NCBI GenBank assembly: GCA_002787355.1
Contig: PCWN01000007.1
Span: forward strand, 248,996 to 312,995
Length of the DNA: 64,000 bases
From: Candidatus Magasanikbacteria bacterium CG11_big_fil_rev_8_21_14_0_20_39_34
GTDB taxonomy: Bacteria; Patescibacteriota; Patescibacteriia; Magasanikbacterales; UBA922
Reading direction: 5' to 3'
Position numbers and translations under genes: made by a program. This document shows, in pieces, positions 4,969 to 55,611 of the stretch. How positions within the stretch are numbered: the stretch's first letter is position 1; each line of letters begins with the position of its first letter. The notes under the pieces are model-generated. The model was not told the DNA's origin. It did no database searches and was given only the letters and a program-made list of their open reading frames with translations.

Positions 4969-7938
4969 TTAAAGTTCTCGATATTCACAAATTTCCTTGA
5001 AATCACAAAATTTACAGGTAAACTTATTGGGTTTTGCAGTAAAGTCTTTGGTATGTATACCATCGATGGTCTTTACTATCTTTGCCTGTAATTTTTCAAG
5101 GTCTTTATTTTCTCCTATAAAACTTGTCTTTACGTTATCATTTAGATAGTAAAAAGTCAACTTGGAGACCGGTCCAATGTGTCTATATTCAGGAAGACTT
5201 TCTGCAGCTATTTGGTAGATAAGCAGCTGCTCTTTATCCTCTGATGTTAGCTTTTCTTTCGTAGCACCCGTTTTATAATCAATAATCTCAATGGACTTAT
5301 CATCATGTTGATCAATCCTATCAATTCTTCCATGAAGAAGATAGTCCCCTACTTGAATCTTAAACCAACTTTCCAATCCCACGGGGACACTCCAATTCCC
5401 TTCTTGAGCTGCATAAAATGTTTGTAAAATTTCTTTTCCTTTTTCAAAGTAACTATCTTTTTGTGATGTACTTTTAAACCAATCATCTATCCAATTCCTT
5501 TTATACAGTGCAAGAAGTTCCTCCAAAGATGGAACTTGTACAGTGTTGCTATCGCGCGGAGGCTGAACAAACTCGGCAAAAAGTGAAACTTGTTTTGCAG
5601 AATTTTTTTCCTGAACCAGTTTATAAAAATCTTGAAGTGTTTTGTGCATGGTATTTCCAAAGCTAAAACTGGCACTTCCTTTCGTGGGAATTTTGAGTAT
5701 ATGTGCAAGTTTGTACTGATACGGACATGTTTCATAAGCCTTGATCTGAGAAAATGAAAATACTTTTGGAATATCATACACAACACCTTGCTTTTCCTGG
5801 GAGATATTTGTCTGTGTATCGGCAATAGAAAAAAGTGCTTCCATGTTCTTTTGAAGATTTTTTTCTTTGGCAATATCAATCCCTGACTCTCCAATAAAAC
5901 GAGAAATTTTTTTCTTTCTTTGTCCACCATAATCATCTGCACTACAGAGATACACACGTTCTTTCGCCCGTGTAAGTGCAACATACATAAGTCTTCTTTC
6001 TTCTTGATAGTGTATTTGGTGAGAAGAAATCTGTTCATGTATAAGCTCTTCTGGGACCTCAATGCCTTTTGATTGGGATCGTGAAGGAAAGCGCTCTTCT
6101 ACTGCGTCTAAAATAAAAACATATCTAAATTCCAAACCCTTGGCCGCATGAACCGTCATGATATTCACTGAATCCGGTGTGTCGGTTGGTTGATAGAGTT
6201 GACCTTCATCTCCAGCATCAAGGATATGTTCATAATTTTTCATAAAATGCTTAAGGTGCGGATCCGTGGTAGTTTGTTCATATTTTGTAAGAAGTTCAAA
6301 GAACTGCTTCAGTTGGTAAATTTGTCGAATGATTTCTGCATTTCCCTCTTCCTCTTTTTGTGTAAGATAAGAAAGATAACCGCTTTGCTCCAAAAATTGA
6401 TACAGTAATGTGGACGGCTTTTGTCCTCGTGCATTTTTCATTCCATCATGGATAATATTAACCACCTTATTACAGATATGAATTCCCTCCTGTGACACCC
6501 CAAACTCAGCAGCACGTTTGAGAAGAACATAGTAAGACAAACTTTTCTTTTTTGAAGCAAAAGTGATTTTTTGTATATCAGATTCTTTGAGTTCTAAAAA
6601 AGGAAGCCGAAGAAGTCGATACATGGCGCTATCTTCTTTATGCTGGTCTAACACACGAAAAAAATTAACACAATCAAGTACAAGCGGTTGGCGAAATAAA
6701 CCAGATGCTGCCAAAAATTCATAAGGAATTTTTGCCTTCTGTAACATATCAATATACGGCGTCGCATGACCATTTGCACGTACAAGAAGCGCAAAATCGT
6801 CCCATACAGCATCTTTATTATCCTGTTTTAAACGCAAAATTTCTTGTGCAACAGAAAAAATAAGATCCGTTTGGGTATCAAAATGAAAATGCTCTACGCT
6901 CTTTTGAGAGCTTTGTTTTTTTTGTGAGATAAGTTTTTTATCCAGCTGTAGTTTTACTTCCAAACGATCTGGATTATTATGCTGTACCAGTGTATGTGCG
7001 GCATCTAATATAGGTTGAGCAGAACGATAATTTTCTGAAAGTACAACTTCATGTGCCGTAGGAAAATCTTCTTTAAAACGCAAAATGTTGGAAACCGATG
7101 CCCCTCGGAACGCATAGATAGCTTGGTCATCATCCCCCACCACAGTAAGGTGTGCATGCTCTGAAAGACACTGGATGAGTCGGTATTGTGACCAATTGAC
7201 ATCTTGAAATTCATCCAAAAGTATATATTTAAATCTTTGTGAAAATTCTTTTTTTATCATTGGTCTTTCCTCCAATAACTTTACAGAGTAATAAATAAGA
7301 TCCGCAAAATCCATGCAAGCATTATCAAGTAACAGCTGATTGTAAACTTTGTACGCTTGTGCAATTTCCAGAAGTCTTTTCTTCTCATCTGCTTCATCCT
7401 CTTGAAACACCCGCTTATTTACATATTCTAGATACTCTTCCGGACTTATCATTTCATCTTTGCATTTTTGAAAATGAGAAATAAAATCATGAATATGTTT
7501 GGTTGGGTTCCCCAAAGGTTTGTAATATTCCAACGGAAACAAATCTAGGTTTTCTTGTACCAAGAGCCAGCATTCTGTTTGAGTCAGAAGTCGAAATTGT
7601 GTTGAAAGTCCAATATCAATACCAAAATTTTCTATAATTTTTTTGCAAAAATTATGAAAAGTAGATATTTGCATATCCAGATACCCAGTTTCCAGAAGAG
7701 CATCTACACGCTCCTCCATTTCAGAAGCCGCTTTTTCTGTAAATGTAATAGCCAAAATTTCCTCAGCCTTTCCCAGTTGGGACTTTATAATATGTGCAAT
7801 TTTTTCAGAAATTACCGTAGTTTTTCCTGTCCCAGCTCCGGCAATAATAAGAAGCGGATTATCAAAATAAAGAACCGCTTCTTTCTGTGCAGCATTGAGT
7901 TGTGTTTGTTTTTTATCCATTTTATTGCCCAAAAACAA
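4969..7938 (-). CDS. UvrD/PcrA-like superfamily 1 helicase fused to a C-terminal PD-(D/E)xK Cas4/AddB-like nuclease domain with a Cys cluster
   Basis: It has Walker A AGAGTGKTT, UvrD-type helicase motifs (VVGDDDQAIYAFRGA, LSENYRS), and a C-terminal ETCPYQYK ... CKFCDFKEICEY (C-x2-C-x5-C) region typical of Fe-S RecB-family nucleases. Total length is 989 aa. Confidence 0.8.
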   Translation of the reverse strand: MFLGNKMDKKQTQLNAAQKEAVLYFDNPLLIIAGAGTGKTTVISEKIAHIIKSQLGKAEEILAITFTEKAASEMEERVDALLETGYLDMQISTFHNFCKKIIENFGIDIGLSTQFRLLTQTECWLLVQENLDLFPLEYYKPLGNPTKHIHDFISHFQKCKDEMISPEEYLEYVNKRVFQEDEADEKKRLLEIAQAYKVYNQLLLDNACMDFADLIYYSVKLLEERPMIKKEFSQRFKYILLDEFQDVNWSQYRLIQCLSEHAHLTVVGDDDQAIYAFRGASVSNILRFKEDFPTAHEVVLSENYRSAQPILDAAHTLVQHNNPDRLEVKLQLDKKLISQKKQSSQKSVEHFHFDTQTDLIFSVAQEILRLKQDNKDAVWDDFALLVRANGHATPYIDMLQKAKIPYEFLAASGLFRQPLVLDCVNFFRVLDQHKEDSAMYRLLRLPFLELKESDIQKITFASKKKSLSYYVLLKRAAEFGVSQEGIHICNKVVNIIHDGMKNARGQKPSTLLYQFLEQSGYLSYLTQKEEEGNAEIIRQIYQLKQFFELLTKYEQTTTDPHLKHFMKNYEHILDAGDEGQLYQPTDTPDSVNIMTVHAAKGLEFRYVFILDAVEERFPSRSQSKGIEVPEELIHEQISSHQIHYQEERRLMYVALTRAKERVYLCSADDYGGQRKKKISRFIGESGIDIAKEKNLQKNMEALFSIADTQTNISQEKQGVVYDIPKVFSFSQIKAYETCPYQYKLAHILKIPTKGSASFSFGNTMHKTLQDFYKLVQEKNSAKQVSLFAEFVQPPRDSNTVQVPSLEELLALYKRNWIDDWFKSTSQKDSYFEKGKEILQTFYAAQEGNWSVPVGLESWFKIQVGDYLLHGRIDRIDQHDDKSIEIIDYKTGATKEKLTSEDKEQLLIYQIAAESLPEYRHIGPVSKLTFYYLNDNVKTSFIGENKDLEKLQAKIVKTIDGIHTKDFTAKPNKFTCKFCDFKEICEYREL

Positions 7939-44588: not shown

Positions 44589-44960
44589 TTGTTTATGAAA
44601 ACATTTGTACAGTTTTTACTGAGTCTTCTTACAAGTATACTTCTTGGCATCTTGGGGCTTGGTGTCGGTGCCACTATTGGCGGTAATTTTGGTTTTCCTG
44701 CATTTGGGGGAAATGTTGGATATGAAGCCGGAGGTGTTTTTTTTGCAATTTTGGGAATTTCTTTGGGTAGCTTTTTCTTTTTTACATTACAAAATAAATT
44801 ACAATCAAAACAATTTCAATTCAAAATGCTCCTTGCAACTGCACTTACATTTTTTAAAGGAAACAAACCAAAAGCAAATTTAAAAATATGTTTCCAGTCT
44901 TTACTATTTATATTTCAAATTCTTGATCAACTTCTGCTAGATGTGTTTTTAACTCGTTAA
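44589..44960 (+). CDS. Small Gly-rich membrane protein
   Basis: A 123-aa protein with an N-terminal TM helix and Gly-rich hydrophobic segments (GVGATIGGNFGFPAFGGNVGYEAGG). Confidence 0.3.
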   Translation: MFMKTFVQFLLSLLTSILLGILGLGVGATIGGNFGFPAFGGNVGYEAGGVFFAILGISLGSFFFFTLQNKLQSKQFQFKMLLATALTFFKGNKPKANLKICFQSLLFIFQILDQLLLDVFLTR

Positions 44961-45876
44961 TCCCAGCGTCAAGAGCGTCAATATAAACTTCAAGTTCATA
45001 ATTTTCAAAATTGCCGGTTTGTTGAAATGTTTCAATTTTGCCAAATACATAATCTAATTTTTTGATTACTTCTTCTGTTCCTGGAATCCTCAAAGTTTCT
45101 CCAAATTTACCATAACGATTTTCCAAGCCTCTTTTTATCTTTTTATATAGCTTGTGATAATGATTAAAACTAGGCCACGCTAAAGGGTGACCCCATTGAA
45201 CGCCATAAATAAGATTTATCTGATACAGAGAAGGCTTATTTAACAAATCGGCTAATTTTTCATTTTTGAATTTTGTTTTGTGTTCTTTCTCTTCTTTTTG
45301 AATTTCTTTCATAACCATTTCTAATTCATTTCCGAGATGTTTATCTTGCTGACTGATGATATCCGCAAATTTTATGGTTTTACTTTCTGTTTTTGAGTGC
45401 ATCCACAACCTATATCTGAAACCGTCTTTGCTCAAAGATGAGCGGTCAATGGTACAAGAGGTAATTTCGTCATTTTCATACTTTGATTTATTACCTCTAT
45501 TTTCCTTTTTTACAGGGTGTCCGATGGTTTCATTTCTGACTTGTCTAATTTTAAAAAGTTCGGAATATTTATTGTCTGTACAATTAATTTTTTTGCTTAT
45601 ACCAAATAAAGATATTTTCAAAAAGTTTACAGCGTCTTGCTGGATAAAAAGAGCTTGTAAAAGTCCATAGGTTGCTAAATATGGGTTTTTTATAAATAAA
45701 TCGTTCGAATTTTTTTGGAAATCTTCTATTGCCAAGCAGGTATCTTCCAGCGTATCTAATGCCGCACAAAATTGATTCCAGTCGCCACTCTGTTTTCTGG
45801 AATAAACTTGAGTCTTTTTTATTGTGGAGCTATTAAAAAGCTCCCTGATTTGATGGGTGATTTCTGTAACGAGCAT
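44908..45876 (-). CDS. Hypothetical island protein with a HEPN-like Rx5H motif, a possible abortive-infection-type RNase
   Basis: A 322-aa protein. KIRQVRNETIGHP fits the HEPN Rx(4-6)H signature in a predicted helical N-terminal region. Its codon usage is more AT-rich than neighbouring housekeeping genes. No other recognisable domain was seen. Confidence 0.35.
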   Translation of the reverse strand: MLVTEITHQIRELFNSSTIKKTQVYSRKQSGDWNQFCAALDTLEDTCLAIEDFQKNSNDLFIKNPYLATYGLLQALFIQQDAVNFLKISLFGISKKINCTDNKYSELFKIRQVRNETIGHPVKKENRGNKSKYENDEITSCTIDRSSLSKDGFRYRLWMHSKTESKTIKFADIISQQDKHLGNELEMVMKEIQKEEKEHKTKFKNEKLADLLNKPSLYQINLIYGVQWGHPLAWPSFNHYHKLYKKIKRGLENRYGKFGETLRIPGTEEVIKKLDYVFGKIETFQQTGNFENYELEVYIDALDAGINELKTHLAEVDQEFEI

Positions 45877-45923
45877 ATCTTATAAATAAAAAGGAAAGAA
45901 ATTTTTGGTTTTCTGCCGCCGCT

Positions 45924-46058
45924 TCACTCCTCCAAAAAGGCTAATAAGTATAGTTTAACATTTTTGCAGAGTTTACGCCCGCCTTTTCTCCGTCGTTTGC
46001 GTCGGCGCGAGGCGCGACGGTAACTCGGAAGTCCACTCACGCTTCGCAAGCAAATCAT
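45924..46058 (-). CDS. Tiny (44 codon) arginine/lysine-rich ORF in a GC-rich spacer; it may be a structured non-coding element instead
   Basis: It translates as MICLRSVSGLPSYRRASRRRKRRRKGGRKLCKNVKLYLLAFLEE. The ATG is 9 nt downstream of, and in frame with, the TAA stop of the NDT-like gene. The region is locally GC-rich (CGN codons or a GC hairpin CGTCGGCGCGAGGCGCGACG). It is below the ORF-track size cut-off. Confidence 0.2.
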   Translation of the reverse strand: MICLRSVSGLPSYRRASRRRKRRRKGGRKLCKNVKLYLLAFLEE

Positions 46059-46067
46059 ATTTTGTTC

Positions 46068-46436
46068 TTACATTTGATTCAGAATTTGTTCAATTCCAAA
46101 AATTAATTCTTTATTATTAGAATATTCAACAAAGTTCTTTGAAACTACTTTTAATGAACCTGATACTTTTGAACCTTTTTTGAAAATACATACTATTGGA
46201 ACTCCGTATGTGTCTGCCCAACCTAATTCAATTCCTAAACCAGTAGCTGGTTCAGAAACTTCTGCAATTAATAATTCTGCTTCATTTTTCAAATAGTCTT
46301 TGGAATTGAATGGTTCATCAGAAGTTTCATGAGGTAAAACAAAAGTATGTTCACCATTTAAGGAACTTTGTCTAATTGGTTCATATAATTCTTTTTTGAA
46401 GTCAAAACTTCTTGAATGTGCAACGTAAATCTTCAT
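46068..46436 (-). CDS. Nucleoside 2-deoxyribosyltransferase-like (NDT/SLOG-clade Rossmann-like) small protein
   Basis: A 122-aa protein. The N-terminus KIYVAHSRSFDF and the C-terminal ATGLGIELGWADTYGVPIV match the NDT-family pattern (K-I-Y-x-A... / D-x-G-T-x-x-E-x-G-x-A-x-x-x-G-K/V-P-V) with the catalytic Glu. It is a very AT-rich gene. Confidence 0.5.
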   Translation of the reverse strand: MKIYVAHSRSFDFKKELYEPIRQSSLNGEHTFVLPHETSDEPFNSKDYLKNEAELLIAEVSEPATGLGIELGWADTYGVPIVCIFKKGSKVSGSLKVVSKNFVEYSNNKELIFGIEQILNQM

Positions 46437-46575: not shown

Positions 46576-47139
46576 TTACGAGTTGTAATTTCTAAAACTA
46601 TTCCTCATTCCAGCTGCATCATTTAATATTTCGTACTTATTCCCCACAATCCGAAAATGTCTAGAAAAATAATACTTCTTAGAAGAACTGTTTAGAGCCC
46701 AATAGATAATTTCTATTTTAGATGTACCTATTATATCTGTGGGTTTGGTGTTTGGTATTCTATAACTCTTTGAGTGATGTTTAAGACTTTGGTCTGGATA
46801 CAAAATCACACTTTCATCATTGGCTGATTTGCTTTTTTCACCATTGAATTCGGACATCCCGATAAATTGAATAGGGACTTTTCCCACGTTCTTCACAGAA
46901 TAAAAAAACTGTATAAAATCTGTCGTCTCACTCAAATTTTTTCCGTCACCGCTTACAATTAATTCAATATCACGCTCTATTGTTACATATGGGGTTGTAA
47001 ATAGTTCAAGTTGCTTCTCCGACACATTTGAAAGGACGTGCGTTTTATATGTATACCAAATCGTAATTATAACAAGAACTATTGTTGAAAGCGCTTGAAC
47101 AGCAGCCACGTTTTCGTTTAAAAATTTAATTAAATACAT
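46576..47139 (-). CDS. Hypothetical N-terminally membrane-anchored protein
   Basis: A 187-aa protein with one N-terminal TM helix (LSTIVLVIITIWYTY) and a beta-rich soluble part. No motif was recognised. Confidence 0.35.
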   Translation of the reverse strand: MYLIKFLNENVAAVQALSTIVLVIITIWYTYKTHVLSNVSEKQLELFTTPYVTIERDIELIVSGDGKNLSETTDFIQFFYSVKNVGKVPIQFIGMSEFNGEKSKSANDESVILYPDQSLKHHSKSYRIPNTKPTDIIGTSKIEIIYWALNSSSKKYYFSRHFRIVGNKYEILNDAAGMRNSFRNYNS

Positions 47140-47548: not shown

Positions 47549-48244
47549 TTAGATTTTACTGCTTAGATGCTTAACAATTTTTTGGATTTCTTTTAGAGAC
47601 TTCTGCATAAGCGTCAATGCAGAAATATTGACACTATCAAATTTGAAATCAACCCACAAAATTCTTTTCACCTGAATTGAAGGATTTGGAAATGGCATAT
47701 TTGTTGTTTGGTCTACTTCAGATCCAAAAATTCTTGCTCCCTTTCCGAATTTTGCAAGTTTCGGATTATAAGACAGGCCGCCACCTTGAATGTGGTCAAC
47801 ATCCACACATTCTTGCTCTTCTCTTGTTTGTTCAATGAGGTCAACATGCTTGTTTCCTATGTTTACATCGTTAAATTGCTTCAACCACATTTGTTCTTGC
47901 CCCTGAAATGGCTGAATTGATAACAAGTATGAATAAAGATCGAGATTACCATCTTTAAGTCCGGGGAACCATTTATTTATACACTTTTCGAAACTTGTCA
48001 AATCGGGAAGGATCGGGAAATAAAAAATCTTGCTTCCTTGATTATTTACAACCGAACTTTCACGAATTTCATTTGCTAGATAGTCAAGTACTGAGCGAAT
48101 ATTTTCAAAAAGATTTTTTATTTCCACCTTCAATTCAGGTTTAATTTGCTTCTTATGCAGGGAATTATTGTATTCCTTTGTGATCTCCTCTAATTGTTGA
48201 GCAGCCTTCTTTAACAGTGCTTTTATACTTTTTGCTCTTTTCAT
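47549..48244 (-). CDS. Hypothetical island protein (231 aa)
   Basis: It is the first gene of the minus-strand island gene string and has no recognisable motif. A helical N-terminus is predicted. Confidence 0.35.
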   Translation of the reverse strand: MKRAKSIKALLKKAAQQLEEITKEYNNSLHKKQIKPELKVEIKNLFENIRSVLDYLANEIRESSVVNNQGSKIFYFPILPDLTSFEKCINKWFPGLKDGNLDLYSYLLSIQPFQGQEQMWLKQFNDVNIGNKHVDLIEQTREEQECVDVDHIQGGGLSYNPKLAKFGKGARIFGSEVDQTTNMPFPNPSIQVKRILWVDFKFDSVNISALTLMQKSLKEIQKIVKHLSSKI

Positions 48245-48332: not shown

Positions 48333-48361
48333 TTGACGAAGCCGATTAATTTTAATACAAT
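48333..48361 (+). promoter_or_regulatory. Near-consensus sigma70-type promoter (TTGACG-17 nt-TACAAT)
   Basis: TTGACG is at 48333-48338 and TACAAT at 48356-48361, with a 17-nt spacer. No protein-coding gene follows on this strand. Confidence 0.5.
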
Positions 48362-48367
48362 GAATGA

Positions 48368-48556
48368 GACCGCCTTACGTGGCGCCTGCTGTGTAACAGC
48401 CGAAAGGTGCGTGTACCAGTAGTTTCAGGCACGAGGAACTTAAAAATGCTGGGACCAGAATAGAACTTGACCTGCTATTTATAGCAGAGATAGTGATTCC
48501 CTAACCATGCGGTTTCTAGGACTGTCTCGAGATCCATTTGAGGCGGTTTTTTTTTG
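48368..48556 (+). ncRNA. Candidate sRNA of about 190 nt (identity unknown; 6S-like architecture is possible)
   Basis: It lies downstream of the promoter above. It is GC-rich relative to the genome. The 5' ACCGCCU pairs with the 3' AGGCGGU as a closing stem, followed immediately by U9. It has internal hairpins such as CUGCUAUUUAUAGCAG. No ORF is present. Confidence 0.4.
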
Positions 48557-48591: not shown

Positions 48592-48678
48592 CGGAGAAGG
48601 CGGGATTCGAACCCGCGGTACGGTTTCCCGTACACATCCTTTCCAAGGATGCGCATTCGACCACTCTGCCACCTCTCC
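48592..48678 (-). tRNA. tRNA-Ser (anticodon GGA), class II with a long variable arm; CCA is not encoded
   Basis: It folds by hand into a cloverleaf. The acceptor stem is GGAGAGG/CTTCTCC, the anticodon stem-loop is CATCC-TTGGAAA-GGATG, the variable arm is TACGG-GAAA-CCGTA, and the T-arm is GCGGG-TTCGAAT-CCCGC. Confidence 0.9.
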
Positions 48679-51052: not shown

Positions 51053-52474
51053 TTATTGGATCTGATGCCCCACCCTCAACAAAAGTTCTTCAGACATCCT
51101 TTTGCCCATGATCTGCAATCCAACCGGTAGACCCGCAGTAGTATTCCCAGCAGGAAGAGATATGCCAGGGATTCCAGCCACTGCCGCAGGACCTACAAAA
51201 ATATCTGCCAAATACATAGCCAGCGGATCACTTGATTTTTCTCCTAAATCAAATGCCGGAAATGGTGACGTTGGTGTTACCAAAACATCTACCTCTCTAA
51301 AAACGCGTTCAAAGTCTTGACTGATCAATGTACGCACTTTTTGAGCTTTTCGGTAATAGGCATCATAGTATCCAGCAGACAATGCATAGGTACCAATCAT
51401 AATGCGTCTTTTTACTTCTTCAGGAAATCCTTTTGCACGAGATTGTGCATATATGCCAAGAAGAGTATCTGCTTCTTCACGGACTCCATAGCGGATTCCA
51501 TCAAGCCGCCCCAAGTTTGAACTGTCTTCTGAAGGAACTAGAATATAATAGACCGGAACGGCATATTTGGTATAGGGAAGACTTACCTCCACCAACTCAC
51601 ATCCTAATTCTTTAAACTGTTGTATTTTTTTCTCAACCAATACTCTTGTTTCTTCATCCATTCCAGCCATTTCAAAATATTCTTTTGGAACTCCAACCCG
51701 TAAACCTGAAATGTCTTCTTCCAAATGTTCTCCATAATGTGGAACCGGAACATCTACCGTTGTTCCATCTTTTTCATCTTTTCCGGCCATTGCCTCAAGA
51801 ATGATTGCTATATCTTCTGAAGTTTTTGCAATGGGTCCTACCGTATCCAAAGAACTGGCCATAGGCATGATTCCATAGCGTGAATTTCTTCCATAGCTTG
51901 GCCGTAAACCAACCACTCCACACAAACTTGCCGGAAAACGAATAGATCCTCCAGTATCTTCCGCAATACCATATATACACATATGATCTGCAACGGATGC
52001 CGCAGAACCACCGGAAGACCCACCTGCTACTTTGGAGAGGTCATGTGGATTTTTTACCGGTCCATACATGGAGTTTTCGTTACTTGCACCATGCCCAAAG
52101 GCATCACAGTTTACCTTCCCAAGAATAACGCCACCCTGCTCTTGAATTTTTTTAATAACCGTAGCAGGATAGGGTGCAATATAATTATCCAAAATCTTTG
52201 CAGATCCTGTAGAACGCATATCTTCCACACAGATAGCATCTTTCACTGAATATGGAATACCTGTAAGCATTTTTTGTTGGCCGGACGCAATCATCTCATC
52301 TGCACGTTTTGCCTGTTCCAAAGCAACTTCTGAGGCAACGGTAATAAATGCATTGATGTCTTTATTCCTTTCCTCTATACGCTTCAAACAAGCCTGTGTT
52401 AACTCAACAGAAGAAAATTTCTTTTCCTTTAACCCCTCATAGGCTTGTTTTAAAGTAAGTTCATTCAAATTCAT
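51053..52474 (-). CDS. gatA: Glutamyl/aspartyl-tRNA amidotransferase subunit A
   Basis: The amidase signature GGSSGGSAASVA with Ser-cisSer-Lys triad context. Confidence 0.9.
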   Translation of the reverse strand: MNLNELTLKQAYEGLKEKKFSSVELTQACLKRIEERNKDINAFITVASEVALEQAKRADEMIASGQQKMLTGIPYSVKDAICVEDMRSTGSAKILDNYIAPYPATVIKKIQEQGGVILGKVNCDAFGHGASNENSMYGPVKNPHDLSKVAGGSSGGSAASVADHMCIYGIAEDTGGSIRFPASLCGVVGLRPSYGRNSRYGIMPMASSLDTVGPIAKTSEDIAIILEAMAGKDEKDGTTVDVPVPHYGEHLEEDISGLRVGVPKEYFEMAGMDEETRVLVEKKIQQFKELGCELVEVSLPYTKYAVPVYYILVPSEDSSNLGRLDGIRYGVREEADTLLGIYAQSRAKGFPEEVKRRIMIGTYALSAGYYDAYYRKAQKVRTLISQDFERVFREVDVLVTPTSPFPAFDLGEKSSDPLAMYLADIFVGPAAVAGIPGISLPAGNTTAGLPVGLQIMGKRMSEELLLRVGHQIQ

Positions 52475-52477
52475 ACT

Positions 52478-52771
52478 CTATTCAAAAACTTTTTTTACTT
52501 TGAGTAATGATCCAACCTTTTCTGGAAAAGCATTTATAATTTTTTGTTGAACCGCATCATTTGGCTCTCCCACGGTATCTTCTCGTGTCACATTCATAAG
52601 CCCGGTTACCTGACAGGTTTCTTCTACATCTTCGGTATCTACTTCATTTAATATTTCAATATAATCAAAAATTACCGAAAGTTGTTCGGCATAGATTTCT
52701 TTTTCTGAGTCAGAAAGCTCAAGTCGTGCTAAAAGAGCAATCTCCTCTATTTCATGCGGAGTTAATTTCAT
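52478..52771 (-). CDS. gatC: Glutamyl/aspartyl-tRNA amidotransferase subunit C
   Basis: A 97-aa protein directly upstream of gatA with a typical GatC N-terminus (EIEEIALLARLELSDSEKE). Confidence 0.8.
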   Translation of the reverse strand: MKLTPHEIEEIALLARLELSDSEKEIYAEQLSVIFDYIEILNEVDTEDVEETCQVTGLMNVTREDTVGEPNDAVQQKIINAFPEKVGSLLKVKKVFE

Positions 52772-52869
52772 AGTGAATTTAGTCCTATTTTAATACAATG
52801 TAGCCTTCTATGCAAGTTCTCTTCTTGCTCTGAGACACTAGACATTTCTTTTTTTCTATGCTTAAATGA

Positions 52870-53040
52870 AAGAGCTATTGCCCACCACGGCAAAGAGGGG
52901 TTTCCCTGATCGTCAGGGAGTCGGCAGTCCACCAAGTTGGGGCAACCGCGAGGTCTGTGTCCAATGCCGATAAGCGCTTTCTTCCTCGGTCAAAAGCGCT
53001 TACCCTCTTGACCCAACCCCAAAAAAAGGATAAGTATGTA
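52870..53040. ncRNA. GC-rich multi-hairpin structured element of unknown function; strand unresolved
   Basis: It has consecutive perfect hairpins: UUGCC-N7-GGCAA, CCCUGA-UCG-UCAGGG, and AAGCGCUUU-N11-AAAGCGCUU. Its GC content is well above the local background. Both strands carry only short overlapping ORFs. A weak hairpin plus T8 follows at 53043-53070. Confidence 0.3.
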
Positions 53041-53089
53041 AAAAAGCCCTTAATTTAGGCTTTTTTTTGTTTTATACACAGGTCTCCTC

Positions 53090-53118
53090 TTGACAAAATA
53101 TAAAAAATGGTATATATT
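53090..53118 (+). promoter_or_regulatory. Near-consensus sigma70-type promoter (TTGACA-17 nt-TATATT)
   Basis: TTGACA is at 53090-53095 and TATATT at 53113-53118, with a 17-nt spacer. Confidence 0.5.
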
Positions 53119-53123
53119 GGCGA

Positions 53124-53357
53124 GTCGACGTCTGAAGATTCAGGTAGTTGAAGAAAACCGGAAGGACATAGAAGCCTTCAACAAACGGTATTCCGAAAAC
53201 ACCCACACCCGAATCGACGGATTCTCTCACCCTCTGACCGAGGACCACCAGTCTCGACCTTTGCCCGGGGTCACTGGTGATGGAGGGATCGTCTCGAGCT
53301 CCAAGCTCCTGACGTCGACACTCCAATAAAGAGTCTCAATAATGGGGCTTTTTTTGT
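53124..53357 (+). ncRNA. Candidate sRNA of about 230 nt (identity unknown)
   Basis: It lies downstream of the promoter above. It is GC-rich. A 5' GAGUCGACGUC pairs with a 3' GACGUCGAC-A-CUC closing stem. An internal stem is GUUGAAG...CUUCAAC. It ends in GGGGCUUUUUUU. The overlapping 79-aa ORF (53090..53329) starts at TTG inside the -35 box and is rejected as coding. Confidence 0.4.
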
Positions 53358-53421
53358 TTGTACAAAATTTTTTTGTATTGTATAAAGATTGTCTGTCATT
53401 AACTGGATTACGTGCAGGTAG

Positions 53422-53533
53422 GTAGATTGCCACGCTGTATACTCAGCTCGCAATGACAATTTGTCTCTGCCTCCGGATGACCCCCTCCTCTCCGTCATTG
53501 CGAGGAGTCCGTAGAGACGACGTGGCAATCTTC
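53422..53533. repeat. Long nested near-perfect palindrome (stem-loop of about 110 nt) immediately 3' of ligA
   Basis: The outer arms are GTAGATTGCCACG / CGTGGCAATCT(T)C. The inner arms are ACTC-ag-CTCGCAATGAC / GTCATTGCGAG-GAGT. This gives about 26 bp of pairing around a 36-nt C/U-rich loop (GTCTCTGCCTCCGGATGACCCCCTCCTCTCC). Confidence 0.5.
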
Positions 53534-53550
53534 GTGTTAGAAAAGAAATT

Positions 53551-55611
<2,061 letters not shown>

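Follow-up and report, generated by a model that had tools for sequence, protein, structure and literature searches.

The spacer that separates gatC from ligA in Candidatus Magasanikbacteria bacterium CG11_big_fil_rev_8_21_14_0_20_39_34 is best explained, with a confidence somewhat above even, as a mosaic of three independent elements at a recurrent landing site for small RNA genes and foreign DNA. We analyzed this spacer (positions 52772-53550) within a 64-kb stretch of contig PCWN01000007.1 (hereafter, the window; coordinates given without a locus name refer to it). From gatC toward ligA, the elements are M1, probably a small RNA gene; M2, a clean candidate for a genuine small RNA gene of unknown family; and M3, which we identify as a dimer of a dispersed palindromic repeat of the repetitive extragenic palindromic (REP) type and not as an RNA gene. 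M1 and M2 lie on the plus strand, antisense to the flanking gatC and ligA genes. Loci from other genomes and from viral contigs are cited by L numbers.

At 779 nucleotides (nt), the spacer is the longest of the 57 intergenic gaps in the window (median, 21 nt; next longest, 614 and 453 nt), in agreement with an earlier note on this DNA. That note also described the GC (guanine-plus-cytosine) content as far above background, which is true locally and modest on average: the spacer has a GC content of 45%, compared with 38.1% for the window, with 100-nt peaks of up to 62%. Six places in the 64 kb reach at least 56% GC per 100 nt. Three of these correspond to M1, M2, and M3 (high-GC stretches 52861-53020, 53171-53340, and 53411-53530), and one of the others is a tRNA. 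Structure had been proposed for all three modules, and shuffle-controlled folding of the plus strand bore this out (z scores of -2.9, -3.4, and -2.2 for M1, M2, and M3, respectively), with fold energies of -67.9 kcal/mol for M1 and -82.6 kcal/mol for M2 and with 11-nt palindrome arms in M3. None of the open reading frames (ORFs) of the spacer had a match at the Pfam threshold, and they are pseudo-ORFs.

M2 (53124-53357, plus strand; about 233 nt) has a close counterpart in L091, a 2.9-kb JGI contig. A promoter scan placed TTGACA-17-TATATT, matching 11 of the 12 consensus positions, at 53090-53118 on the plus strand, and an intrinsic terminator lies at 53328-53357, in keeping with the previous suggestion that the middle module is promoter driven. 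Because this terminator contains three G·U pairs, it is predicted to act on the plus strand only. Between the two signals, a closing stem, GTCGACGTC/GACGTCGAC (53124-53132 with 53311-53319), encloses three arms and is followed by the tail ACTCCAAT (53320-53327). In the supported RNA fold, the closing stem GUCGACGUC/GACGUCGAC surrounds the three arms, may be extended by GAG/CUC, and leaves a single-stranded ACUCCAAU tail on its 3' side.

Searches with GatC, LigA, and GatA for closer relatives revealed a gap in identity between 100% and 70 to 75%, to which L091 (LigA identity, 85%) was the sole exception; the closest relatives in the genome collection are Magasanikbacteria with LigA identities of 60 to 67%. 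When compared by blastn with 170 related loci, M1, M2, and M3 matched only the same population and L091. A tblastx comparison of the modules with the fetched related loci gave no translated similarity, and sequence similarity searches of phage and plasmid collections gave no match for them. M2 and its L091 counterpart are 82% identical over 280 nt, and L091 keeps the promoter hexamers, their spacing, and the terminator. All of the predicted pairs (61/61) form in both sequences, with five compensatory changes, four one-sided changes to G·U, and four invariant G·U pairs; when the 3' partners were slid by one to three columns as a control, pairing fell to 32 to 45%. In eight pairs, at least one of the two sequences has G·U, which would read as an A·C mismatch on the minus strand; the strand of M2 is thereby fixed as plus. 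Six 1-nt insertions or deletions (indels) in the M2 body relative to L091 break every frame and thus rule out a reading frame, and the earlier view of the spacer as noncoding, with pseudo-ORFs only, is upheld. An 18-nt block of M2 is invariant between the two sequences; three viral contigs matched it as a bare 18-mer, at chance level. These results establish the anatomy, the strand, the noncoding status, and the structural conservation of M2, the expression of which is inferred.

A more distant relative, L171 (LigA identity, 70%), has an M2-type counterpart that shares the promoter, the tail, and the terminator of M2, and it lacks both M1 and M3. The sequence UUUGCCC occurs near the apex of a 3'-proximal hairpin in M2, L091, L171, and L303, surrounded by helices that cannot be aligned, and is suggestive of an apical-loop motif common to the four.

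M1 (about 52873-53068, plus strand; approximately 195 nt) is probably a second small RNA gene of the M2 type. A promoter-like site read from the sequence, TAGACA-17-TTAAAT (52839-52867, plus strand), ends about 6 nt upstream of the predicted RNA and has TG at -15/-14, as in an extended -10 element (TAGACA-17-TG-c-TTAAAT); the promoter scanner was silent on it because position 2 of the -10 hexamer is T. The predicted RNA (all parts on the plus strand) begins with a 5' hairpin (52879-52892), followed by a four-way junction that is closed by the 7-bp helix AAGAGGG/CCCTCTT (52893-52899 with 53003-53009) and contains three hairpins (52903-52919, 52920-52971, and 52972-53001). A C-rich tail, GACCCAACCCCAAAAAAA (53010-53027), comes next and includes one side of a possible pseudoknot, GUUGGG/CCCAAC (52936-52941 with 53012-53017). 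The terminator hairpin AAAAAAGCCCTTAATTTAGGCTTTTTTTT (53040-53068), with A-run and T-run flanks, appears in the folds of both strands, and it would end M1 on the plus strand and stop ligA read-through on the minus strand. M1 as a whole folds on either strand (plus, -67.9 kcal/mol, z of -2.9; minus, -73.6 kcal/mol, z of -2.7). The L091 contig ends inside M1, which leaves for comparison the tail, the terminator, and the last ~20 nt of the junction, made up of the 3' strand of hairpin 3 and that of the closing helix; in L091, the terminator stem requires two G·U pairs and would therefore function on the plus strand only.

The apical loop of M1 hairpin 3, UCCUCGGUCA (52983-52992, plus strand), is a perfect 10-nt complement of the M2 segment UGACCGAGGA (53235-53244, plus strand), which lies inside the 18-nt invariant block. 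Among 300 dinucleotide shuffles, 5 produced a 10-mer complement between M1 and M2, and the global duplex energy of M1 with M2 was not better than that of shuffles; a loop-loop contact is a lead only.

The order ligA-gatC-gatA is widespread in Patescibacteria, and the gap between ligA and gatC ranges from 7 nt to 3.1 kb. The earlier note had asked whether the spacer is present in relatives, and the answer differs by part: its length varies over this entire range, and M2 is kept, with compensatory changes, in L091. Many relatives have, antisense to ligA and gatC alike, between one and three units of a common layout: a TTGAC(A/T) promoter; a closing stem of 9 to 15 bp that starts with G 5 to 10 nt after the -10 hexamer; a variable GC-rich core of 60 to 200 nt; a CUYC tail rich in pyrimidines; and a terminator preceded by an A-run. 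Carriers of this layout include L171, L302, L303, L016, L019, L026, L029 (three times), L031, L097 (twice), L111, L116, and L165, and the number of closed-stem units varies from 0 to 3 among related genomes. Between species, the flanks can be aligned and the cores cannot, and the closing stems covary (4 of 12 pairs in one comparison and 3 pairs in a second). The slot between ligA and gatC is occupied in some relatives by tRNA genes, some of them with aberrant anticodon arms. The variability of the site is plain from these comparisons, and we regard the ligA-gatC junction as a probable hot spot of acquired DNA and of small genes with strong expression.

Several further occupants of this slot were recorded. 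L119 (5020-5300, minus strand) has a tRNA-like sequence with acceptor, D, and T arms in which a 26-nt hairpin insert replaces the anticodon loop, and L127 has, as judged by eye, a tRNA-like sequence with an insert of about 50 nt upstream of two called tRNAs; ARAGORN called neither tRNA-like sequence. The tRNAs called at L028 6622-6701 and L048 6072-6153 carry, at position 37, odd anticodons (aat and act, respectively). L028 and L119 also have a closed-stem hairpin RNA that lies ahead of the tRNA and shares its transcription unit. GC-rich genes (52 to 66% GC) occupy the slot in Patescibacteria genomes of 30 to 45% GC (L018 2354-3202, L116 5200-7236, L151 5087-5926, L002 2368-3192, L028 6118-6477, and L302 2600-2900), and a local, AT-rich TTGACA promoter precedes several of them. 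Their appearance is that of cargo gained by horizontal transfer; an OMP decarboxylase (L018; 61% GC), a peptidase M49, and an amino-acid kinase are among them, along with several genes of unknown function. In L172-L177 (about 230-2410; GatC identity, 70%), the region upstream of gatC holds a Bsp6I-type restriction enzyme and a LexA/S24-fused DNA methylase instead of ligA, and this restriction-modification system is a further sign of an insertion hot spot upstream of gatC. The L025 spacer (6038-6582, minus strand) contains CUGAUGAGGCAGAGAGUCGAAAG, which resembles a hammerhead core and which Rfam did not report at the gathering score. L025 and L035 share CACACGAACGAG in GC-rich spacers of 380 to 545 nt, where a larger RNA is possible.

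The mosaic reading suggests the following course of events for the two RNAs. A sigma-70 promoter would start M2 a few nucleotides before a closing stem of 9 to 12 bp that joins the 5' end to the 3' part of the RNA by base pairing; this stem would enclose a GC-rich, three-armed structure of about 180 nt, which would be followed by the pyrimidine-rich tail (ACUCC) and the intrinsic terminator. M1 would be a second gene of this layout, with its promoter, closed four-way junction, C-rich tail, and terminator. Both may be stable, trans-acting RNAs whose paired ends shield them from end-dependent RNases, with the exposed C/U-rich segments and loops serving as working surfaces toward G-rich sites (e.g., ribosome-binding sites) or a protein, and the two RNAs may touch each other through their 10-nt loop-loop complementarity. 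We infer the expression of M1 and every function of both RNAs from such features.

A bolder form of this proposal places M1 and M2 in a new, fast-evolving class of "closed-end" small RNAs found in Magasanikbacteria and their relatives among the Patescibacteria, each with a strong promoter, a closing stem that starts with G and covaries between species, a hypervariable GC-rich core, a CUYC tail, and a terminator. Such RNAs would be carried as one to three cassettes in the ligA-gatC slot and would be subject to diversifying selection, and M1 and M2 might act as a kissing pair; we consider this proposal speculative and rather improbable. If true, a conserved frame around a replaced or rapidly diverging core would be a sign of such selection, as might act on RNAs with decoy, immunity, or host-interaction roles in these episymbionts, encoded in a slot shared with noncanonical tRNA-like genes and promoter-equipped foreign genes. 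Almost nothing is known of the noncoding RNAs of the candidate phyla radiation (CPR), and the comparative picture of a recurrent insertion and expression site, with conserved frames around unrelated cores, may be more useful than the single locus. If M1 and M2 are ordinary lineage-specific small RNAs, the result is one of routine annotation.

Several points weigh against reading M1 and M2 as small RNA genes. The covariation in M2 comes from two sequences (the window and L091), and a shuffle control equaled it in 9 of 500 trials. A covariance model of M2 (R1) matched the window and L091 only, and not even L171; as the M2 interior is thus undetectable outside the L091 lineage, any "family" would be defined by layout and flanks, with no shared core. 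A covariance model of M1 (R2) found no convincing homologue in 680 kb of relatives, its only match being an unconvincing one in L130 (20.6 bits; same slot and strand), and M1 appears to have no comparative support at all. The closed-stem units of the relatives were found by a scan that required a closing stem, which makes their recognition partly circular and their frequency biased. Since the slot collects GC-rich foreign DNA, the GC-rich cores may have begun as decaying cargo, and M1 could still be such cargo. The C/U-rich tail, finally, could simply reflect the C-rich composition of the strand.

One alternative is that M1, M2, or both are transcribed and functionless leftovers of GC-rich acquired DNA whose structure is a by-product of GC content. 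The slot does hold GC-rich foreign genes with local AT-rich promoters (L018, L116, L151, L028, L302, and L002), and the interiors of M1 and M2 are without a homologue outside the nearest lineage. A functionless leftover would not be expected to retain 61/61 pairs with five compensatory changes at 82% identity despite six indels, however, or to have a closing stem that begins at the transcription start in every lineage, and neither translated similarity to the fetched loci nor a Pfam match pointed to a former gene. We consider this explanation unlikely overall and still plausible for M1; it is the strongest of the competing ones.

The third element, M3 (53425-53530), is a nested palindrome composed of two REP-like units in head-to-head orientation. 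The left unit (53425-53458, minus strand) reads TGTC-ATTGCGAG-CTGAGTATACAG-CGTGGCAAT-C and the right unit (53493-53530, plus strand) CGTC-ATTGCGAG-GAGTCCGTAGAGACGA-CGTGGCAAT-C. The 34-nt spacer between them (53459-53492) is variable, being longer and AT-rich in L091. Perfect 11-nt arms are present at 53424/53521 and 53447/53494. The unit consists of fixed flanks around a variable inner hairpin, (C/T)GTC-ATTGCGAG-hairpin-CGTGGCAAT-C, and the 64-kb window contains only these two copies of it.

An exact-flank pattern scan of IMG/VR detected units of the form GTCATTGCGAG-hairpin-CGTGGCAATC, sharing exact 21-nt flanks, in at least 120 viral contigs; among the matches listed, as many as nine copies share a contig. 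In this set of listed matches, the tag reads TGTC in 125 of 165 viral instances, and there are 119 distinct inner sequences, 59% of which have a terminal stem of at least 4 bp (2.5% after shuffling). The inner hairpin is thus kept by covariation, and its flanks are invariant. Units of this type also occur in the Patescibacteria loci L023/L104, L047, L114, and L150, in unrelated contexts (e.g., between a response regulator and a pilin gene in L023/L104 and between gatC and gatA in L047); in L023 and L047 they are arranged tail to tail, opposite to the arrangement in the window. We regard the membership of the M3 units in this repeat family as established by these sequence matches.

The viral loci (L178-L297; e.g., L194 2670-11920, L181 11383-11520, and L209) carry GTCATTGCGAG and CGTGGCAATC around a covarying hairpin, often in co-oriented arrays of three to nine copies with periods of 42 to 54 nt, and no clear bias was seen in the orientation of the units relative to genes in viral contigs. 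The unit is also found in records of human-gut phages; Rfam has no entry for it, GenBank phage records leave it unannotated, and the literature on the repeat sequence yielded primer matches only. CRISPR or TIGR arrays were rejected as explanations of the repeated units, because the inner "spacers" can pair with themselves and, in L181, the spacers between units are identical. A k-turn was likewise rejected for the unit, which has no A on the 3' strand. The unit is a widespread and sharply conserved palindrome variant of CPR genomes and at least 120 viral contigs, and it marks structural variation in the population described here.

The closest described relatives of the M3 unit are the CGTC-tagged REPs, a superfamily with an unpaired tag, a stem of 8 to 9 bp that starts with A-T and T-A, and a loop of 4 to 5 nt, and found mostly as head-to-head dimers with spacers of 20 to 100 bp (PMC3733652). 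Like CGTC/TGTC REPs (Di Nocera et al. 2013, PMC3733652; REPINs, Bertels & Rainey 2011, PMC3116915), the M3 units have an unpaired (C/T)GTC tag and a stem that starts with A-T and T-A. As in REP dimers, they stand head to head across a 34-nt spacer and can fold into one long hairpin, and, like REPs, they are extragenic, next to the 3' end of a gene, and dispersed over unrelated genomes with no dedicated transposase nearby. The window shows no sign of a REPIN-RAYT system, in which the repeats flank a RAYT (Y1 transposase) gene: no transposase of any kind was found among its proteins. Unlike CGTC REPs, the M3 units have an outer stem of 5 bp (ATTGC/GCAAT) and, next to it, a conserved internal loop (GAG/CGTG), a variable, covarying inner hairpin of 9 to 18 nt replaces the continuous stem, and the tail is C(C/T)N rather than the CCA of the described CGTC REPs; the exact M3 consensus was not found in PMC3733652. 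In view of this split stem with its inner hairpin, we provisionally file M3 as a variant of the CGTC-tagged REP.

Sequences around M3 suggest how it came to lie beside ligA (53551-55605, minus strand). Directly after the M2 terminator, TTTGTACAAAAT (53356-53367) is identical to the 12 nt encoding the last LigA residues (…DFVQMT-stop) of L171, which directly follow the orthologous terminator there; it is a putative relic of the ancestral ligA 3' end. The C-termini of LigA in the window and L091 extend about five residues beyond those of relatives (…DFVQMT-stop and …EFLKMV-stop). An M3-bearing segment was probably inserted into the 3' end of ligA, parting the gene from a terminator that it once shared with the small RNA. 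A miniature inverted-repeat transposable element (MITE) would have terminal inverted repeats flanked by a target-site duplication; at the edges of M3 there are inverted units and no clean direct repeat, and the relic has only a weak resemblance to the current ligA end. The relic sits 200 nt from that end (53551-53600). In L091, M3 is tandemly duplicated along with the last ligA nucleotides, and that locus does not keep the promoter-like hexamers that precede M3 in the window. L002 and L008, from the same population, match the window at 100% identity across gatC, M1, and M2 and diverge from it directly outside the TGTC end of the left unit, at ~53460; past the breakpoint, L002 has a terminator and then a 63 to 66% GC gene of unknown function. 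Because the M3 unit is far below the assembler's 141-nt k-mer, these breaks look like real structural variants. M3 would now form the first part of the ligA 3' untranslated region (UTR), with a possible role as a 3' stem-loop barrier, and it is probably only a stem-loop and a hot spot of duplication and rearrangement, like other REP dimers. A mobile or intron remnant, which the earlier note had considered for the spacer, is thus supported for M3 alone, as a REP dimer, and not in the form of an intron, transposon ends, or a classical target duplication.

A likely side effect of the M3 insertion is that ligA read-through would run antisense across M2 up to the hairpin at 53040-53068. This raises the alternative that M2 (and M3, as RNA) mainly exerts antisense control of ligA: any ligA transcript that continues to 53068 would be fully complementary to M2, and convergent transcription, or cleavage of the duplex by RNase III, would tune the ligA mRNA. 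The M2 terminator is predicted to act on the plus strand only, given its three G·U pairs, and no minus-strand terminator lies between the ligA stop codon and 53068, so that the ligA 3' UTR would extend for about 480 nt and run over M2. In the L019/L026/L029 clade and in L171, however, a single bidirectional terminator serves both the small RNA and ligA, and the two do not overlap, which makes the overlap in the window a probable by-product of the M3 insertion and the RNA layout older; moreover, a plain antisense RNA needs no conserved internal structure. We therefore hold antisense control as the main role to be quite improbable.

On the other side of the spacer, M1 lies directly upstream of gatC (52478-52771, minus strand; start codon at 52771) and gatA (51053-52474, minus strand), and its minus strand folds about as well as its plus strand (-73.6 kcal/mol, z of -2.7). 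T-box control of gatCAB is known in Clostridium. M1 could accordingly be imagined as a cis-regulatory gatCAB leader on the minus strand, of a riboswitch or T-box-like kind. A candidate gatC promoter, read from the sequence as TTGCAT-17-TAAAAT followed by AGG (52787-52815, minus strand), is located between M1 and the start codon, however; its -35 hexamer is below the reach of the promoter scanner, and the same arrangement (TTGCCA-17-TAAAAT-AGG) is present upstream of gatC in L171, which suggests that the site is the gatC promoter. This promoter is downstream of M1 on the minus strand, where M1 is preceded by a terminator and not by a minus-strand promoter. In addition, L171 and many relatives have gatC without an M1-like leader, and no T-box or riboswitch model matched at an E value of ≤10. 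We therefore rejected a T-box or riboswitch leader of gatCAB and give the leader interpretation little credence.

The earlier note had also entertained a single origin for the entire spacer, as one composite noncoding RNA locus or as the remnant of a single mobile element or intron. The three GC-rich blocks are close together, and short T-rich direct repeats follow each of them. This idea does not accord with the two internal promoter/terminator pairs, one each for M1 and M2; with L171, which has the M2-type unit only; with the M3 units, which belong to an unrelated dispersed repeat family; or with the lack of any intron signal in Rfam and of any transposase, integrase, or reverse transcriptase signal in the Pfam matches of the window genes. 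The composite locus thus finds no support, and a single origin in either form is very improbable.

TIGR arrays are frequent in CPR genomes and have stems that are "variable but consistently palindromic" and variable interiors; a TIGR-Tas system has an adjacent Nop-domain (Tas) gene, with 8- to 12-nt spacers flanked by box C/D motifs and processed into 36-nt tigRNAs (PMC12045711). The closed-stem RNAs resemble such arrays (Faure et al. 2025, PMC12045711) in their occurrence in CPR, their variable palindromic stems and interiors, and their tandem arrangement, and they differ in having a promoter and a terminator for each unit, in being far larger, and in showing no box C/D-spacer pattern. The view of M1, M2, and the relatives' closed-stem RNAs as orphan guide RNAs, closest to a TIGR-Tas array, draws on these palindromic variable stems frequent in CPR (PMC12045711) and on the tandem units in relatives, and it is the least probable of all the explanations, as no Nop-domain (Tas) gene is found among the 56 window proteins and gatC/gatA/ligA, each unit has its own promoter and terminator instead of being cut from an array, and the M1/M2 cores measure 116 to 196 nt, compared with 36 nt for tigRNAs, with no regular box C/D-spacer pattern.

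Known RNA families were compared with the spacer and set aside. At the gathering score, Rfam 15 gave a sole match in the 64 kb, to tRNA-Ser (48592-48678). At E values of ≤10, positions 52700-53620 gave only subthreshold look-alikes of terminators and leaders (15 to 22 bits), and the relatives (15 loci at the gathering score, L171 and L091 at E values of ≤1, and L029 at E values of ≤10) gave only tRNAs and spurious look-alikes of microRNA precursors and terminators. ARAGORN found no transfer-messenger RNA (tmRNA) in the window. These results confirm the earlier failure to recognize RNase P RNA, tmRNA, signal recognition particle (SRP) RNA, or a T-box by eye, and they give no match to an intron either. 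SRP RNA was rejected for M3 (no GGAA/AGCA motifs and no model match), RNase P RNA for lack of CR-I/CR-V, 6S RNA because the fold is not rod-like and the copy number varies, and Y RNA because the window has no Ro gene and there was no match; 5S rRNA was considered for the spacer RNAs and rejected. Pfam scans covered the 56 window proteins and gatC/gatA/ligA, and no reverse transcriptase, transposase, integrase, Nop-domain, or TROVE/Ro protein was found among the window proteins. RNAs of retrons, diversity-generating retroelements, and group II introns were rejected because the window proteins have no reverse transcriptase domain, and attC sites or an integron were rejected for lack of core sites and an integrase.

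In general character, M1 and M2 resemble 6S, Y, SRP, and RNase P RNAs in their strong promoters, paired ends, and GC-rich sequence in an AT-rich genome, and the slot that they share with tRNA genes in relatives is a further likeness to housekeeping RNAs. M2 differs from such RNAs in having a three-armed junction instead of a rod with a central bubble and in giving no match at E values of ≤10. Stand-alone bacterial small RNAs with an intrinsic terminator and a C-rich single-stranded seed include RsaE/RoxS of Firmicutes. M1 and M2 are like this type in their own sigma-70 promoters, Rho-independent terminators, lengths of 100 to 250 nt, structured bodies, and exposed C-rich segments, and unlike it in the absence of any sequence or Rfam relationship and in a 5' end that is locked in a long closing stem. 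A literature search on the topic found no description of M1/M2-type RNAs.

The other genes of the window identified by Pfam are of a housekeeping nature (ATP synthase, MreB/C, tRNA synthetases, RecQ, PriA, pilus genes, and NUDIX). Elsewhere in the window, an unannotated small RNA candidate lies beside tRNA-Ser (48333-48556, plus strand), with a TTGACG-17-TACAAT promoter and a 185-nt structure whose 12-bp closing stem, GAGACCGCCTTA/TGAGGCGGTTTT, runs into T9; its minimum free energy is -64.4 kcal/mol (z of -3.0), and it had no Rfam match at E values of ≤10. Just upstream of this region are four consecutive minus-strand genes without a Pfam domain (44908-45876, 46068-46436, 46576-47139, and 47549-48244), separated by long gaps of 191, 139, and 409 nt. 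The first of these gaps (45877-46067), between two unannotated minus-strand genes, has a GC peak of 56% (GCCCGCC…GCGTCGGCGCGAGGCGCGACGG) and may be a structured leader or another small RNA.

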